From the NCBI GenBank assembly GCA_027026255.1, contig JALVOT010000015.1:413-64412 (forward strand): a stretch of 64,000 nt of DNA, read 5' to 3'. Each line of letters starts with the position of its first letter. Position 1 is the stretch's first letter. The position numbers were made by a program, and so were the translations under genes. Source of the stretch: a candidate division WOR-3 bacterium. Its GTDB lineage: Bacteria > Hydrothermota > Tepidihabitantia > SM23-42. The notes below the pieces were generated by a model that saw only the letters and a list, made by a program, of their open reading frames with translations, was not told the origin of the DNA and did not search any database. Below, one piece after another: positions 42,341 to 53,496 of this stretch.

Positions 42341-42892
42341 CTAAGCTGGCTTTTTTAAGTTTTTGCCGTAGGTGTAGCCCTTTTCAAATGCCTTCAGGTT
42401 GAGAGGAATCGCCTTTTCCGGAACAGAATCCGGGATTGCCTTTTTCATCGCTTCGGGGCTTACAACATCGGTGATTGCAGTAAAGAAGCCGAGCATTACT
42501 ACATTGGCCACAATTTTTATTCCCAGTTCTTCAGCAAATCTTGTTGCCGGGATGGCGAATGTTGTGTTCACCCTATCCGACTTTGGTTTTACAAGGTCTT
42601 CATCATAAAGAAGAATTCCGTTTTCTTTGAGTTCAGATTCAAATTTATCATACCCGGCCTGGGACATTGCAACTAAGATGTCTGATTTTGTAACATAGGG
42701 ATATAGTACCTTTGTTTCTGCAACAACAAGCTGGGAACTGCAGGCACCGCCGCGGGCTTCAGGTCCGAACGATTGATTCATTGTGGCAAATTTATTGTCA
42801 TAGATAGAGGCAGCTTTACCGACAATAATCCCGGAACGAATAATACCCTGGCCTCCATATCCGGCAAATCTTATTTCAAACATCCTATTCAC
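42341..42892 (-). CDS. korC: 2-oxoacid:ferredoxin oxidoreductase gamma subunit
   Basis: EIRFAGYGGQG, QSFGPEARGGA, NVVMLG, NLKAFEKG. Confidence 0.9.
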   Translation of the reverse strand: MNRMFEIRFAGYGGQGIIRSGIIVGKAASIYDNKFATMNQSFGPEARGGACSSQLVVAETKVLYPYVTKSDILVAMSQAGYDKFESELKENGILLYDEDLVKPKSDRVNTTFAIPATRFAEELGIKIVANVVMLGFFTAITDVVSPEAMKKAIPDSVPEKAIPLNLKAFEKGYTYGKNLKKPA

Positions 42893-43661
42893 CTTCCTTT
42901 TTTGGTTCTGCTACCGCCCCTGAATAGGGGATGAATTTATCACCCAAAACCCTGGTAAGCTGGGCATTATATGTGTCGAGATAGGTAGGTCTTTCTAATG
43001 TAGTGAATCTTCCAATAATAATCTTTTGATCGTTTCTGATTTCTGTTTCCCTTGGTTCAATTCCCTCTTTTATTTCTGAATTTTCATAGTAGAAGTTTAA
43101 TAAACTCGATTCAATTTTATCAATGCCCTGATAGTAATTTAATCCCGGCGCCAACACCTCAATTACTGATAGTCCATTTTTCTGAAGTGCTTCGGTTATC
43201 GATTTTGCCAGTTCATCGGTATGAAGGGCAGTCCAGCGCGCCGTATAGACCGCACCGCAGGAATTTGCAAGATGTGGGATATTAAAGGGCTCTTCAAATG
43301 TGGAATAGGCGGAAAATTTTGTGGTAGTTTCTGGTGCGGATTTATGGGCAATTTCCCGATATATAAAACTGTTGATGCAGATGACGGTTAGTTCCATATT
43401 TCTTCGTCCGGCATGAACAAGATGATTACCACCCAGGGTGATCAGATCACCGATTATTGGAATTACCTTTAATGATGGATTGGTAAGTTTCAGTCCGGTG
43501 CCAAAGGCAACTGCCCGACCTCGATTGGTATGGAAATAATCCACGCCAAGATATTTTATATCCTCGGGCCGAAATGGAATATCCGATGTTATTGAAATCT
43601 TTTGTGGGTTTATACCCGATTCTTTAATCCCATTTGCCAGTGTTTCAATAAATGTACTCAT
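42885..43661 (-). CDS. Degenerate 2-oxoacid:ferredoxin oxidoreductase beta subunit (KorB')
   Basis: Alignable to 44889-45743 (GRAVAFGTGLKL, GGNHLVHAGRRN, PFNIP, YTARWTALH) but lacks the Fe-S cysteines and GDGD/NN; start placed at ATG 43661 (ATGA overlap). Confidence 0.85.
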   Translation of the reverse strand: MSTFIETLANGIKESGINPQKISITSDIPFRPEDIKYLGVDYFHTNRGRAVAFGTGLKLTNPSLKVIPIIGDLITLGGNHLVHAGRRNMELTVICINSFIYREIAHKSAPETTTKFSAYSTFEEPFNIPHLANSCGAVYTARWTALHTDELAKSITEALQKNGLSVIEVLAPGLNYYQGIDKIESSLLNFYYENSEIKEGIEPRETEIRNDQKIIIGRFTTLERPTYLDTYNAQLTRVLGDKFIPYSGAVAEPKKEGE

Positions 43662-44899
43662 TCCTTTGCACTCCAATTTCCTTCAAAGACCAATTTTTCT
43701 AACCTTGTCTTGAATTCAATGATACCTTCGGATTTTTTCTCCTTTTGTGCACCCAGTTCGATAGCATCACAGATATCCTGGGGATTGTGAACGCCCGCAC
43801 CACCGTGGGGAACAAGCACAACATTGGCTTTTCCATCACAACACCTTTCTATCTCAAAGACAATCTGTCCATAATTGATTTCCGGAACCACAAATGCCTT
43901 GACTCGATTTGCCAGTTCTCTAATCTTTTCATCGGGAAACGGCCAGACCGTAACAAGCCTGAGATTTCCGACCTTGATACCTTTTTCCCGCGCCATATCA
44001 ATCCCTTTTATTGCTACCCTTGAGGATATGCCGTAGGAGACAACCACTACTTCGCAGTTTTCAGTTTCTTCTTCTTTCAGTTCAATAATCTTATCTTTAT
44101 TTTTTTGAATTTTATCGATAAGCCTTTTAAGATATATTCCCCTTGGTTCATCCTTTTTAACAGGATAGCCCTTTTCATTATGGGCAAGTCCGCTGATGAA
44201 TAGATTCAGACCATCCCCGGCTTTTGCAATCTGGGGGATGAGGTCGGAGCCAGGTTTAAATGGTAGATATTCTTCCGCCGACCCCTTATAGAAGTTTCTG
44301 GGTTCAATCTCAATTTCATCAGCTGCCGGGATGACAACCTTTTCTGTCATATGACCAACACATTCATCCGCCATAATCATTACAGGGCAGCGGTATTTCT
44401 CGGCAAGGTTGAATGCCTTGATTGTATAATCGAACATTTCCTGGGGAGAATCCGGGGAAATCGCAATGATTTCATAATCACCATGTGAACCCCAGCGTGA
44501 CTGCATCATATCTGCCTGACCGGTTTTGGTCGGTACCCCTGTAGATGGGCCACCCCGCTGAACATTTAGCAGGACAAAAGGTGTTTCAAGCATTGCCCCG
44601 TATCCGATTGTTTCCATCATCAATGAATAGCCGGGTCCTGATGTAATCGTCATCGCCTTGGCTCCTCCCCAGGCAGCACCTAAAACTGCGGCAATAGAAG
44701 CGAGTTCATCTTCCATCTGGATGAAGATTGCCCCGGCTTTTGGTGCGACACGGGCAAATGCCTCGGCGGCTTCAGTAGAAGGGGTAATCGGATAGCCAGC
44801 AATAAATTTGCATCCTGCAGCCAATGCACCCCAGCCGGCAGCGACATCACCGTCAATATAATAGACACCGGTAAGAACTGATTTTGGATCAGCCTTCAT
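43658..44899 (-). CDS. korA: 2-oxoacid:ferredoxin oxidoreductase alpha subunit (canonical motifs)
   Basis: YPITPSTE, QMEDE, TSGPG, VQRGGPSTG, EINYGQ. Confidence 0.93.
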   Translation of the reverse strand: MKADPKSVLTGVYYIDGDVAAGWGALAAGCKFIAGYPITPSTEAAEAFARVAPKAGAIFIQMEDELASIAAVLGAAWGGAKAMTITSGPGYSLMMETIGYGAMLETPFVLLNVQRGGPSTGVPTKTGQADMMQSRWGSHGDYEIIAISPDSPQEMFDYTIKAFNLAEKYRCPVMIMADECVGHMTEKVVIPAADEIEIEPRNFYKGSAEEYLPFKPGSDLIPQIAKAGDGLNLFISGLAHNEKGYPVKKDEPRGIYLKRLIDKIQKNKDKIIELKEEETENCEVVVVSYGISSRVAIKGIDMAREKGIKVGNLRLVTVWPFPDEKIRELANRVKAFVVPEINYGQIVFEIERCCDGKANVVLVPHGGAGVHNPQDICDAIELGAQKEKKSEGIIEFKTRLEKLVFEGNWSAKE

Positions 44900-45743
44900 T
44901 GTCCTCTCCTTTTATCTGAGTGCGCCATTTATTGTAACGTTCCGTATAACTTGGTCTTTCCCGATCGACAAATTTACCGCAGATAATATTCGATTGGAAC
45001 GGGATATCAAGATTTTTTGTATTCTCACCATGTCGGATTTCTGCATTGGTATGATAGAACCTCATCATATCGATTCCATCCCCCAGACGATTAATCCGGG
45101 AGTAATACTGGGCACAGGGTGATATAACTTCAATCAAAGAAAATCCTGTTTTATGCAATGCCTCAACTATGGAGGTTGCCAATCTGCGCACATGGAGTGC
45201 AGTCCAGCGTGCAACATAGACCGCACCTGCAGAATCAGCAATATAGGGAATATTGAATGGCGGTTCAACACATCCGTAAGGTGAAGTGGTGGCATAGGCG
45301 GTAAGTGGGGTGGTCGGGGCAACCTGACCACCGGTCATCGCATAGATGAAGTTATTTACACAAATCACAACCATATCAATATTTCTTCGTGCGGCATGGA
45401 TAAAGTGATTTCCACCGATTGCAAGCAGGTCTCCATCACCGGAAAAGACGATGACCTTTAAATTAGGATTTGCCAGTTTAATACCGGTTGCAAATGGAAT
45501 AGCCCGACCATGGGTTGTGTGGAATGAGTCAAGTTTCACATAACCTGCTACCCTTCCGGTGCAGCCAATGCCGGAAACAATGCAGACATTATTTAAGTCA
45601 ACCTGTGCCTTATCAAGTGCTGCGGCAAGGGTGGTAACTGCAATGCCGATACCACAACCCGGACACCAGATATGGGGTAGTCGGTCCATCCGGAGAAGAT
45701 TCTCCATCGGATGGTAGGTATTCCTTGTGGTTAATGTTTCCAT
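44889..45743 (-). CDS. korB: 2-oxoacid:ferredoxin oxidoreductase beta subunit (canonical motifs)
   Basis: WCPGCG, SGIGC, HGRA, GDGD, NN..YAMTGGQ, SPC. Confidence 0.94.
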   Translation of the reverse strand: METLTTRNTYHPMENLLRMDRLPHIWCPGCGIGIAVTTLAAALDKAQVDLNNVCIVSGIGCTGRVAGYVKLDSFHTTHGRAIPFATGIKLANPNLKVIVFSGDGDLLAIGGNHFIHAARRNIDMVVICVNNFIYAMTGGQVAPTTPLTAYATTSPYGCVEPPFNIPYIADSAGAVYVARWTALHVRRLATSIVEALHKTGFSLIEVISPCAQYYSRINRLGDGIDMMRFYHTNAEIRHGENTKNLDIPFQSNIICGKFVDRERPSYTERYNKWRTQIKGEDNEG

Positions 45744-45758
45744 AATGATACCTTTTTT

Positions 45759-53082: not shown

Positions 53083-53186
53083 AATCTTCTCCTATTGACT
53101 AAAATATCAAAAAAAATTGCCTTCTGACCATCACTTTTCCGCCGGGCAGTAGTTTTTCCTGTTTTCAGATTATAATTTAGGTTTTT

Positions 53187-53214
53187 ATTATATTCGAAAT
53201 GTTGCAATTGTCAA
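53187..53214 (-). promoter_or_regulatory. Promoter of the hdrA...korC operon
   Basis: TTGACA-N16-TATAAT. Confidence 0.7.
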
Positions 53215-53217
53215 TAA

Positions 53218-53496
53218 TTAATGAACCGGCGTCTTTGCATCTTCTTTTTTGGTTACATAAATCGCGAATTCTGGACAGAGCATTTCACATAAATGACATT
53301 CTGCGCAGTTATCAGGATTTTTTATTCGGGGTGGATGATAGCCCTTGATATTAAATTCTTCTGAAAGTTCTAAAACATCACGTGGACAATATTCTATGCA
53401 GAAACTGCATCCCTTGCATCTATCCTTGATAATATGGACCTCACCTATGACGACATTTATCTTATCAGCATCAAGTGGTTTTCTTTGAAAAATCAT
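53218..53496 (-). CDS. korD: 2x[4Fe-4S] ferredoxin-like OFOR delta subunit
   Basis: RCKGCSFCIEYCP...FNIKGYHPP...CAECHLCEMLCPEFAI; AAGGAG SD. Confidence 0.88.
   Translation of the reverse strand: MIFQRKPLDADKINVVIGEVHIIKDRCKGCSFCIEYCPRDVLELSEEFNIKGYHPPRIKNPDNCAECHLCEMLCPEFAIYVTKKEDAKTPVH

Follow-up and report, generated by a model that had tools for sequence, protein, structure and literature searches.

A stretch of 64,000 nucleotides from a candidate division WOR-3 bacterium (contig JALVOT010000015.1 of assembly GCA_027026255.1, positions 413 to 64,412; "the window" below means this whole stretch) carries on its minus strand, at 42341-53496, a cluster of twelve genes in the order korD-hdrA-mvhD-hdrC-hdrB-frdB-frdA-korA1-korB1-korA2-korB2-korC. 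On balance, we favour the prediction that these genes encode a cytoplasmic, quinone-independent fumarate reductase (FrdAB) built on an Hdr chassis and co-transcribed with a 2-oxoglutarate-type ferredoxin oxidoreductase (Kor). The arrangement lies far beyond chance: this set of genes is met again beside FrdA-like genes in 63 loci of other genomes.

Linkage of hdr, frd and kor genes across genomes

A scan of one genome per species returned 63 loci with an FrdA relative of 55-91% identity, 42 of which span at least 14 kb. All 63 loci were searched with the window proteins, and all their open reading frames (ORFs) were clustered. These FrdA-centred loci bear more than a dozen phylum-level labels from both Bacteria and Archaea; the locus labels include Aminicenantes, Bacteroidota, Cloacimonadota, Sumerlaeota, TA06, Spirochaetota, Anaerolineales, Thermotogaceae, Bipolaricaulota/Acetothermia, Thermoplasmata, DHVE2/Aciduliprofundum, Methanomassiliicoccales, Bathyarchaeia and Hecatellales. 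Among the 42 long loci (all 63 loci in brackets), frdB is present in 42 (58), hdrB or hdrC in 39 (46), hdrA in 36 (41), mvhD in 28 (32) and korA or korB in 22 (29), and hdrBC, hdrA and kor occur together in 22 (24). The linkage for which the earlier note on this DNA had proposed a synteny search therefore recurs across bacterial and archaeal labels. Twelve of the 15 loci without any hdr gene are shorter than 14 kb.

Gene order varies by lineage, for example hdrC-hdrB-korDABC-hdrA-(mvhD-flx)-frdBA, korDABC-hdrA-mvhD-(mvhGA)-hdrCB-frdBA and frdBA-korDABC-hdrA-hdrCB, and hdrC-hdrB directly flank frdB-frdA in most loci. This sharing of content in shuffled orders across phyla argues for a functional module of Hdr/MvhD, FrdAB-like and Kor proteins. 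An assembly artefact or a unique event can be ruled out as the source of the window's gene order, which is also found in four other genomes of the family and in locus L001.

Candidate electron donors are encoded in some of the 63 loci. A Flx-like trio comprising a FrhB-like Fe-S protein, a Fer4_22 protein and an NAD_binding_1 protein with a 2Fe-2S domain follows mvhD in 11 loci and would provide NAD(P)H input, and the [NiFe]-hydrogenase subunits MvhG/MvhA are found in nine, sometimes between mvhD and hdrC. Because such donor modules stand beside kor in these genomes, Kor appears to be an addition to the donor module and not a substitute for it. Pathway genes are also found in the loci, namely sucC/sucD in ten, class I fumarase in five and malic enzyme in five, which places the module along the path that leads from malate through fumarate, succinate and succinyl-CoA to 2-oxoglutarate.

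The same pathway genes suit a looser reading, in which Hdr-MvhD, FrdAB and Kor are co-regulated but otherwise independent enzymes of one pathway, with free ferredoxin and another Frd donor running between them. SucCD, fumarase and malic enzyme are surely not subunits and nevertheless sit in the same clusters, and kor and frd are unlinked in a majority of the relatives sampled below. However, the flanking of frdB-frdA by hdrC-hdrB, the retention of hdrB/C in nearly all long loci, the lack of any other electron-input subunit for FrdAB and the complex model described below, which backs a contact between FrdB and HdrBC, together make co-regulation alone very improbable.

The FrdA-like and FrdB-like proteins

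The FrdA-like protein aligns with E. coli FrdA over residues 95-504. Across 45 family members, its dicarboxylate-site residues T344, E345, R348, R369, H442 and R476 are invariant and H328 is nearly so. The top Foldseek match of its AlphaFold model (mean predicted local distance difference test score (pLDDT) 83.7, predicted template-modelling score 0.87) is E. coli FrdA 1kf6_A (E 9e-30, template-modelling (TM) scores 0.64/0.61, 31% identity over 453 columns). Fumarate as the substrate is supported, rather than established, by these conserved residues and by the fumarase, sucCD and malic-enzyme neighbours in other genomes.

At the position of the His that links flavin adenine dinucleotide (FAD) in E. 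coli FrdA, all 45 members have Asn (Asn137), which replaces the residue needed for a covalent 8-alpha-histidyl FAD. An FrdA that has lost its covalent FAD bond no longer oxidises succinate but still reduces fumarate. The invariant Asn therefore favours fumarate reduction as the predicted activity, and a putatively non-covalent flavin fits a one-way fumarate reductase. The opposite direction would be taken in a confurcating scheme, in which succinate (+30 mV) and Kor-reduced ferredoxin together reduce NAD(P)+ or protons, replacing the membrane-bound reverse electron transport of syntrophic or fermentative succinate oxidation. Two methylmalonyl-CoA mutases in the genome would suit this scheme, related lineages have been discussed as propionate oxidisers, and H2-coupled succinate oxidation has been proposed for Sdh-Hdr-hydrogenase clusters of Culexarchaeia. 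The invariant Asn speaks against it, as does the mean donor potential of about -245 mV, which lies above those of NAD+ and H+ under standard conditions; we consider the scheme highly improbable.

The FrdA-like protein has a 97-residue N-terminal extension, which is confidently modelled and is uncovered by solved structures, and a short C-terminus without a Pfam match to Succ_DH_flav_C. Used alone as a query, the extension matched 288 clusters at 50% identity, 83 of them at E <= 1e-10; among the 150 matching clusters listed, many of which are fragments, the match nearly always falls at the cluster's own N-terminal end. By source label, the closest FrdA homologues belong to candidate division WOR-3, Aminicenantes and others. 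The FrdA proteins with this extension and a non-covalent FAD are predicted to form a distinct subfamily of fumarate reductases.

Three other identities were considered for the FrdA-like protein and rejected. L-aspartate oxidase is ruled out by the Fe-S partner of the protein and by a separate NadB on contig C13, which exceeds its NCBIfam cut-off and is the only other FrdA-like gene in the genome. An adenylylsulfate reductase or Qmo-type protein is ruled out by the Protein Data Bank comparison, where AprA gives an E of about 1e-4 compared with 1e-50 to 1e-59 for FrdA/SdhA. TfrA is ruled out by an NCBIfam score of 301 bits against a cut-off of 718, with only positions 6-423 of the 546-position profile matched (the last ~120 are unmatched).

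All 12 Cys of the FrdB-like protein are invariant in 47 sequences; they form a 2Fe-2S motif and two complete CxxCxxCxxxCP motifs. As the distal motif has its full four Cys, the distal cluster is predicted to be 4Fe-4S. Type E enzymes and TfrB likewise have a 4Fe-4S distal cluster.

Further features were seen around frdA in related loci. A 145-aa PilZ-domain gene lies right after frdA in 11 loci, mostly of the Aminicenantes type (L005-L010, L014, L030, L058, L059 and others), and in L015 and L017 frdA is directly followed by a GlcD-like gene and then by mvhD and mvhGA. The FrdA matches of two complete, single-contig genomes of the family are split (936/1329 kb in G132 and 2072/2488 kb in G133), and these may be broken genes or wrong assemblies.

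The Hdr core and its contact with FrdB

HdrA (Pfam Pyr_redox_2 and three Fer4 stretches) scores 861.5 bits on the NCBIfam model HdrA2, over profile positions 1-643 of 777. This is under the cut-off of 1100 because MvhD is a separate gene in the window; MvhD (FlpD, 182 bits) covers the last 133 positions of the same profile (644-776). The eight Cys of HdrC are invariant in an alignment of 27 sequences. In HdrB, C9, C41, C42, C85, C88, C159, C198, C199, C234 and C237 are invariant in 31 sequences, and both CCG motifs are complete; its NCBIfam scores are 164 bits for MFR_anch_SdhE (cut-off 500) and 157 bits for HdrB TIGR03288, both under cut-off. Although all Hdr equivalog models score the window proteins under their cut-offs, the core features of a bifurcating HdrABC-MvhD are present, namely a full-length HdrA, MvhD, HdrC and an HdrB with two complete CCG motifs.

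The NCBIfam profile of TfrB is matched piecewise by three window proteins: FrdB covers positions 19-83, HdrC 126-225 and HdrB 262-485. The spread of one profile over three genes provides a Rosetta-stone argument for the association of their products. A complex model of FrdB with HdrB and HdrC gave a median score of 0.80, compared with 0.00 for the best control, in line with the FrdB-HdrC/B interface that the earlier note had put forward for structure prediction. In calibration, a score of 0.80 was reached by 58 of 80 solved complexes and two of 110 mismatched pairs, with the limit that the calibration did not include custom alignments of the kind used here. The model runs have at least 81% of contacts in common, with a partner pLDDT of at least 71. 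The modelled contacts set HdrB residue 9 and residues 38-43 (first CCG motif) against FrdB 134-141 and 153-162 (region of the first four-Cys motif), and the HdrC C-terminal tail also lies against FrdB, whose side of the interface spans 122-162. Resemblance to known structures of Hdr or complex II could account for some of this score. The model thus supports, but does not show, binding of FrdB to HdrBC, and we think that FrdAB is probably bound to HdrBC.

A true disulfide reductase would require the two intact, invariant CCG motifs of HdrB just as much. In a thiol-mediated scheme, HdrBC would reduce a low-molecular or protein disulfide, and FrdAB together with HdrB, which resembles the CCG half of TfrB, would re-oxidise the thiol, so that a diffusible carrier and not a direct Fe-S wire links the half-reactions. 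The TfrB profile, which amounts to a fusion of FrdB-like and HdrB-like parts, is in keeping with this scheme, and the TfrB enzyme reportedly uses thiols. A DsrC-like carrier has been named as an option (Mitchell 2024). By tblastn, the genome has a single close hdrB/hdrC pair (a fused HdrD-like protein on contig C14 was seen only by Pfam), which would leave one CCG site to form the disulfide and also to use it up; moreover, DsrC has no match in the genome, which is rated 99% complete, and the complex model places the first CCG motif against the ferredoxin domain of FrdB. The thiol-mediated scheme appears improbable to us.

The six-gene Kor and its degenerate pair

Kor subunits of all four types are found in the window: alpha (POR_N and PFOR_II) in KorA2, beta (TPP_enzyme_C, four Cys) in KorB1, gamma (POR) in KorC and delta (2x4Fe-4S) in KorD. 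KorA2 and KorB1 are a canonical pair, and it is these two that most closely match the KorA and KorB of loci with one gene for each. The earlier note had named the two Kor pairs by their families correctly; however, the pairs are not equivalent, and in place of a symmetric (alpha-beta-gamma-delta)2 enzyme with one gene per subunit there is a second, degenerate alpha'/beta' pair. KorB2 is devoid of all four beta-subunit [4Fe-4S] Cys (the N-terminal CxxC is deleted, GIGC has become DIPF and SPC has become APG), and its thiamine pyrophosphate (TPP) motif is partly gone, with loss of the first Gly-Asp of GDGD and of the MTGGQ stretch. In KorA1, YPIEPA replaces YPITPS and GPGHG replaces GPSTG. We thus predict one live pair (KorA2/KorB1) and one degenerate pair (KorA1/KorB2); no description of such a KorA'/KorB' pair was found in the literature searched.

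The losses in KorB2 are common to all 120 of its 120 best homologues (59-100% identity, 247-270 aa), which are labelled as WOR-3, Stahlbacteria, Cloacimonetes, Armatimonadetes and KSB1, among others. Within the window's phylum, a beta'-type match (at least 52% identity) is present in about 36 of the 271 other genomes, and 20 of these, picked for long assembled stretches, were sampled. The order korA1-korB1-korA2-korB2-korC is found in 19 of the 20. An frd gene adjoins the six-gene kor in eight (with the exact window order in four); the examined stretch has no frd in the other 12, ten of which have korD directly before korA1. Since six-gene kor clusters exist in relatives without frd and with korD adjoining korA1, the six-gene kor is the older entity, and the block hdrA-mvhD-hdrC-hdrB-frdB-frdA is predicted to have been inserted between korD and korA1 in the window's lineage. 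The idea that KorA1/KorB2 is an adaptor specific to Hdr-Frd is weakened by the same 12 relatives. Doubled kor genes are found in only two of the 63 FrdA-centred loci (L001 and L009).

The Kor substrate is less certain. The top subunit-specific models are of the 2-oxoglutarate:ferredoxin oxidoreductase (OGOR) type, with scores of 257 bits (cut-off 364) for KorB1 and 345 bits (cut-off 579) for KorA2; KorC scores 204 bits on a gamma-subunit model (cut-off 235), and the top NCBIfam models for KorD (Pfam Fer4_7/Fer4) are OGOR_delta, at 68.6 bits (cut-off 125), and OorD. The sucCD neighbours in related loci add support for 2-oxoglutarate specificity.

In one relative (G147), korA2-korB2-korC is distant from a second KorB-type match and an frdA fragment. 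HdrA-like genes with 37-40% identity are found downstream of korC in many WOR-3 relatives and possibly correspond to the block on contig C2 described below.

Operon architecture and neighbouring genes

All twelve ORFs lie where the earlier note had placed them, and Pfam and NCBIfam agree with the family names it had given; the order likewise bears out its statement that the Hdr/Frd block parts korD from the remaining kor genes (Table 1). From hdrA through korC, adjacent genes overlap by 4-19 nt or are 6-15 nt apart, with mvhD overlapping hdrA by 4 nt, and a gap of 135 nt separates korD from hdrA. This gap holds a promoter-like site that matches the consensus in full. The tight spacing and this site are as the note had described them; korD has a further promoter-like site of its own. 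A sequence scan found no terminator-like site on the minus strand within the cluster. Among the 12 products, no match to hydrogenase, formate dehydrogenase, Flx or membrane-anchor families was found in Pfam or NCBIfam, and the highest hydropathy peaks (1.86 in KorC and 1.71 in KorB1, in a crude 19-residue scan that is no substitute for a proper transmembrane predictor) belong to soluble-enzyme families; the absence of MvhAG, formate dehydrogenase, FlxABC and any membrane anchor or transmembrane protein from the operon, as claimed in the note, is consistent with these results.

Table 1. Genes and sites of the kor-hdr-frd operon and of its surroundings in the window
Feature	Position	Strand	Length (aa)	Description	Family match or site
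promoter-like site ahead of korD	53519..53546	-		consensus match only	TTGACT-16-TATAAT, 11/12
korD	53218..53496	-	92	delta subunit of 2-oxoacid:ferredoxin oxidoreductase, ferredoxin-like, 2x[4Fe-4S]	
promoter-like site between korD and hdrA	53187..53214	-		consensus match only	TTGACA-16-TATAAT, 12/12
stretch upstream of hdrA	53083-53186	-		~100 nt between promoter-like site and hdrA start; G+C-rich, then eight T	
hdrA	51130..53082	-	650	FAD and N-terminal Cys domains; ferredoxin domains, one inserted and one C-terminal	
mvhD	50711..51133	-	140	[2Fe-2S] adaptor subunit	Pfam FlpD
hdrC	50313..50714	-	133	2x[4Fe-4S] subunit	Pfam Fer4_17/Fer4_8, top NCBIfam HdrC
hdrB	49407..50303	-	298	two CCG domains, ligands of non-cubane clusters	Pfam CCG x2
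frdB-like (SdhB-like)	48638..49393	-	251	[2Fe-2S] and two 4-Cys ferredoxin motifs	Pfam Fer2 and Fer4
frdA-like	46965..48623	-	552	flavoprotein	FAD_binding_2 at 98-481
korA1	45759..46958	-		divergent alpha' subunit	
korB1	44889..45743	-		canonical beta subunit	four Cys and GDGD...NN TPP motif
korA2	43658..44899	-		canonical alpha subunit	
korB2	42885..43676	-		degenerate beta' subunit	
korC	42341..42892	-		gamma subunit	Pfam POR, 126.5 bits
promoter-like site ahead of 169-aa ORF	42122..42095	-			11/12
ORF directly downstream of korC	41576-42085	-	169		no Pfam/NCBIfam match
aldehyde dehydrogenase and class III aminotransferase	38678-41530	+		convergent with 3' end of the kor operon	
alpha-2-macroglobulin-like protein	60891-63641	-	916	bacterial; unrelated to the operon	
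urocanase	29586-31265	-	559	unrelated to the operon	

The stretch upstream of hdrA, with its run of eight T, was not called as a terminator by the scan. The 169-aa ORF that follows korC has the top hydropathy peak of the region (2.09) and may encode a small membrane protein. Of the two convergent genes beyond it, the aldehyde dehydrogenase has alpha-ketoglutaric semialdehyde dehydrogenase as its top NCBIfam model (544 bits, under the cut-off of 770), and the aminotransferase exceeds the cut-off of an acetylornithine-aminotransferase-family model. Their position beside Kor may reflect another route into 2-oxoglutarate or glutamate.

Proposed electron flow and possible donors

We infer the path of the electrons, their bifurcation and direction, the donor and any Kor-Hdr contact from the gene content described above. 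A two-electron donor would reduce the HdrA flavin through MvhD, and HdrA would bifurcate the electrons, a step to which we give an even chance. The high-potential electron would pass from HdrC through the CCG clusters of HdrB and the three clusters of FrdB to the non-covalent FAD of FrdA, which would reduce fumarate to succinate, with fumarate in the place of CoM-S-S-CoB (the heterodisulfide of coenzymes M and B), the high-potential acceptor of methanogens. The low-potential electron would leave through the ferredoxin domains of HdrA, either to free ferredoxin or directly to KorD, and would drive the reductive carboxylation of succinyl-CoA to 2-oxoglutarate. Other loci encode fumarase, succinyl-CoA synthetase and either malic enzyme or malate dehydrogenase, and in combination with these the scheme would make up a reductive branch of the tricarboxylic acid (TCA) cycle, which could serve glutamate synthesis or a full reductive TCA (rTCA) cycle. 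The scheme is energetically sound, because NADH-fumarate reduction yields about -58 kJ/mol and OGOR carboxylation requires +2 to +10 kJ/mol with ferredoxin at -480 to -440 mV, according to the table of a 2026 review. Of the roles weighed in the earlier note, FrdAB-like proteins as the high-potential arm and Kor as the user of low-potential electrons is the best reading. Its alternative of Kor as the donor docked on MvhD is not supported: related kor loci carry separate Flx-like or MvhGA donors, the genome has an orphan MvhGA, and the six-gene kor stands without adjacent hdr-frd in the 12 sampled relatives noted above.

The window is part of contig C15 of a 2.10-Mb genome in 18 contigs. Among sequencing datasets, its best DNA match is a hydrothermal-vent metagenome, from which the assembly may derive, and no RNA dataset was listed for window positions 44800-53600. 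Contig C7 encodes MvhG (321 aa), MvhA (487 aa) and a HycI protease with no mvhD adjoining, and this orphan [NiFe]-hydrogenase, having no MvhD of its own, is the best candidate for a donor encoded outside the operon, an assignment that we regard as tentative. FrdA and MvhA are near-universal in the family, being found in 30 and 27 of 31 genomes, respectively (an orthologue in the case of MvhA), so their joint presence says nothing about the pairing. The four other mvhD copies of the genome are located on contigs C2 (two), C17 and C18, and the MvhD proteins that stand beside MvhGA in loci L035 and L037 resemble the C2 copies and the window copy to a similar degree (52-60% identity).

No match to MqnA or MenD was found in this 99% complete genome, and the quinone-free coupling put forward in the earlier note fits this result; UbiA-family hits are non-diagnostic for quinones, being also present in 14 of 14 control genomes. 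A class I fumarase, two SucCD-like pairs, the two methylmalonyl-CoA mutases, citrate synthase, Rnf and two further KorDABC-like clusters are present. Of the genes that the note had listed for a genome search, mvhAG, succinyl-CoA synthetase-like genes and fumarase were thus found and quinone markers were not, while FlxA/FlxB-like genes occur on contig C18, in a complex-I-like membrane cluster and not beside the operon's hdrABC. A citryl-CoA lyase on contig C1 (L073, 165-2196; 319.7 bits, NCBIfam cut-off 245) and the two SucCD-like pairs raise the possibility of an rTCA cycle of the citryl-CoA synthetase/lyase type.

Several observations weigh against this reading as a whole. The operon itself has no donor module, none of the family's complete genomes has MvhGA beside hdr-frd, the genes lying far apart, and the window MvhD is no closer than the C2 copies to MvhGA-linked MvhDs, which makes the donor assignment weak; the genome also has the four other mvhD copies and further HdrA-like clusters. 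Three of the 42 long loci carry frdBA with no hdr gene within reach, and Kor and Hdr-Frd can be encoded apart, as they are in those 12 of the 20 sampled relatives. The Kor substrate is not proven, as all OGOR subunit models remain below cut-off. A good number of the host lineages are regarded as fermentative, and there Kor would work in the oxidative direction.

The last point leads to the main rival, a fermentative flow in which Kor oxidises 2-oxoglutarate derived from glutamate and electrons pass from KorD or ferredoxin through HdrA and HdrBC to FrdAB, with fumarate as the sink. No outside donor would be needed, and MvhD and the bifurcating flavin would be idle or coupled to a third partner. 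Both the operon and its closest relatives are indeed without a donor module, the host lineages are widely read as amino-acid fermenters, and the aminotransferase and the alpha-ketoglutaric-semialdehyde-dehydrogenase-like gene adjoin the operon. It is also known that HdrA2B2C2 of Methanosarcina can use reduced ferredoxin alone. However, kor clusters elsewhere also hold NAD(P)H or H2 donor modules, which this flow would not need, a full-length bifurcation-type HdrA and MvhD are conserved, and the uncoupled transfer of electrons from -500 mV to an acceptor at +30 mV would waste about 100 kJ/mol. We consider the fermentative flow unlikely.

Within the reductive scheme, the docking of Kor to Hdr is doubtful. 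A bolder version, in which all twelve gene products form one soluble super-complex with a trans-encoded hydrogenase docked on MvhD and with HdrA bifurcating, has in our view a small chance of being right. The non-cubane clusters of HdrB would then do no more than relay electrons into FrdBA, without any thiol as substrate, and the low-potential electron would pass via KorD straight into an asymmetric Kor, of which the dead KorA1/KorB2 half would be a docking scaffold. Fumarate reduction would thereby pay directly for fixing CO2 onto succinyl-CoA, with no need of free ferredoxin, a quinone or a membrane.

Other gene clusters of the genome contain relatives of these proteins. On contig C7 (L074, 6546-10975), a GlcD-like FAD-linked oxidase lies directly before mvhG-mvhA-hycI. 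Contig C2 (L075, 4858-10838) carries mvhD, two FrhB-like Fe-S proteins, a QmoB-like protein (547 aa), a QmoA-like protein (427 aa) and a second mvhD; the QmoA-like and QmoB-like proteins are HdrA relatives, and a block of this type is found directly upstream of frdBA in the Cloacimonadota and Spirochaetota loci L017, L026, L028 and L051. Contig C14 (L076, 2041-13404) has an Hdr-type cluster of two acyl-CoA dehydrogenases, EtfB, EtfA, a 647-aa HdrA and a 399-aa HdrD-like protein with Fer4 and CCG domains, followed by MeaB, methylmalonyl-CoA mutase and a B12-binding subunit. The C18 cluster (L081, 1898-9938) combines NuoH-, NuoC- and NuoD/NiFe-like subunits with an antiporter subunit; to these are joined a Fer4_22 protein, an NAD-binding 2Fe-2S protein and a Molybdop_Fe4S4 protein. 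The C1 citryl-CoA lyase adjoins the large subunit of an aconitase/isopropylmalate-dehydratase-family enzyme.

Comparison with known systems

HdrABC-MvhD genes are often found in bacteria and non-methanogenic archaea that do not produce CoM-S-S-CoB, and genome surveys still annotate them as heterodisulfide reductases. In the available portions of surveys of WOR-3 and Cloacimonadota, MvhADG-HdrABC is treated as a CoM-S-S-CoB system, and no connection with frd or kor is drawn. What Hdr reduces outside methanogens is a long-standing question, and the module offers a testable answer for one large family, namely fumarate. Should the proposal hold, fumarate reduction would let these organisms draw reduced ferredoxin from H2 or NAD(P)H, and they would spend this ferredoxin at once on 2-oxoglutarate synthesis. 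Estimates of what the reductive TCA branch costs uncultured anaerobes in energy would then change. The super-complex, if real, would give HdrB a new role and the widespread 2-oxoacid oxidoreductase pseudo-subunits a function; KorA'/KorB' is a conserved half of a 2-oxoacid oxidoreductase that is predicted to be catalytically stripped and that, by source labels, also occurs in other phyla.

The system had been put forward as a candidate undescribed one, but the Hdr-Frd-Kor concept is already in print as a hypothesis (Rubin-Blum 2019; Koendjbiharie 2019/2020). In tubeworm symbionts and Thioflavicoccus mobilis, korABCD and tfrAB are interspersed with flxABCD-hdrABC, and one electron-shuttling complex that feeds both OGOR and fumarate reductase has been proposed there (Rubin-Blum 2019). 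Candidatus Endoriftia persephone, other tubeworm symbionts and Thioflavicoccus have the same combination of Hdr, a two-subunit soluble Frd and a four-subunit Kor in one cluster. Their clusters have FlxABCD for NADH input and lie beside aclAB and other rTCA genes, whereas the window operon is donor-less, belongs to a WOR-3-type genome and has an MvhD translationally coupled to HdrA and a six-gene Kor with a degenerate pair. Co-expression data exist for the flx-hdr-tfr-kor genes (Mitchell 2024), and a 2026 review calls for experimental verification of the scheme.

A "succinate operon" of Flx-Hdr-Frd with proposed bifurcation has been reported for Pseudoclostridium thermosuccinogenes (Koendjbiharie and van Kranenburg 2019, described in PMC7282089). 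It likewise pairs a soluble FrdAB with Hdr, and succinate formation is proposed to be coupled to ferredoxin reduction; unlike the window operon, it includes fumarase and a Flx NADH donor, has no kor and is given a fermentative role. The available portions of the published accounts describe no purification of Flx-Hdr-Tfr-Kor or Flx-Hdr-Frd complexes.

In methanogens, TfrAB, MvhAGD-HdrABC and KorABCD together perform the same reductive-branch chemistry, with H2-driven bifurcation supplying reduced ferredoxin to 2-oxoglutarate synthase alongside the reduction of fumarate. The halves are linked there by free CoM-SH/CoB-SH, whereas no such cofactor is expected in the window's organism, and TfrB is a single chain in methanogens where the window has the three genes frdB, hdrC and hdrB. 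Type E succinate:quinone reductases and methylmenaquinol:fumarate reductases combine the same FrdA, FrdB and HdrB-like CCG protein and have the four-Cys distal motif. MFR_anch_SdhE is the best-scoring model for the window HdrB, though far under its cut-off; however, the type E enzymes are membrane-attached and use quinones, unlike the window system with its HdrA, HdrC and MvhD and its lack of quinone markers. A five-subunit soluble NADH-fumarate reductase is reported to function in the reductive TCA cycle of Hydrogenobacter thermophilus, with its genes dispersed. Both are soluble multi-subunit Frd systems, but dispersed genes and NADH dependence set the H. thermophilus enzyme apart from the window operon.

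Super-assemblies of Hdr, hydrogenase or formate dehydrogenase and formylmethanofuran dehydrogenase in methanogens (PMC13518236) provide a precedent for a direct transfer of HdrA's low-potential electron to an enzyme that fixes CO2, via a ferredoxin-like subunit comparable to KorD. The acceptor enzyme there differs from Kor, and docking of Kor in the window operon is putative. The term "bifurcating fumarate reductase" was not found in the literature searched. Relative to that literature, the breadth of the module, the N-extended FrdA subfamily, the hdr-frd insertion into a six-gene kor and the KorA'/KorB' pair are new, and the window operon is a predicted donor-less, MvhD-coupled variant of the hypothesised Hdr-Frd-Kor module.

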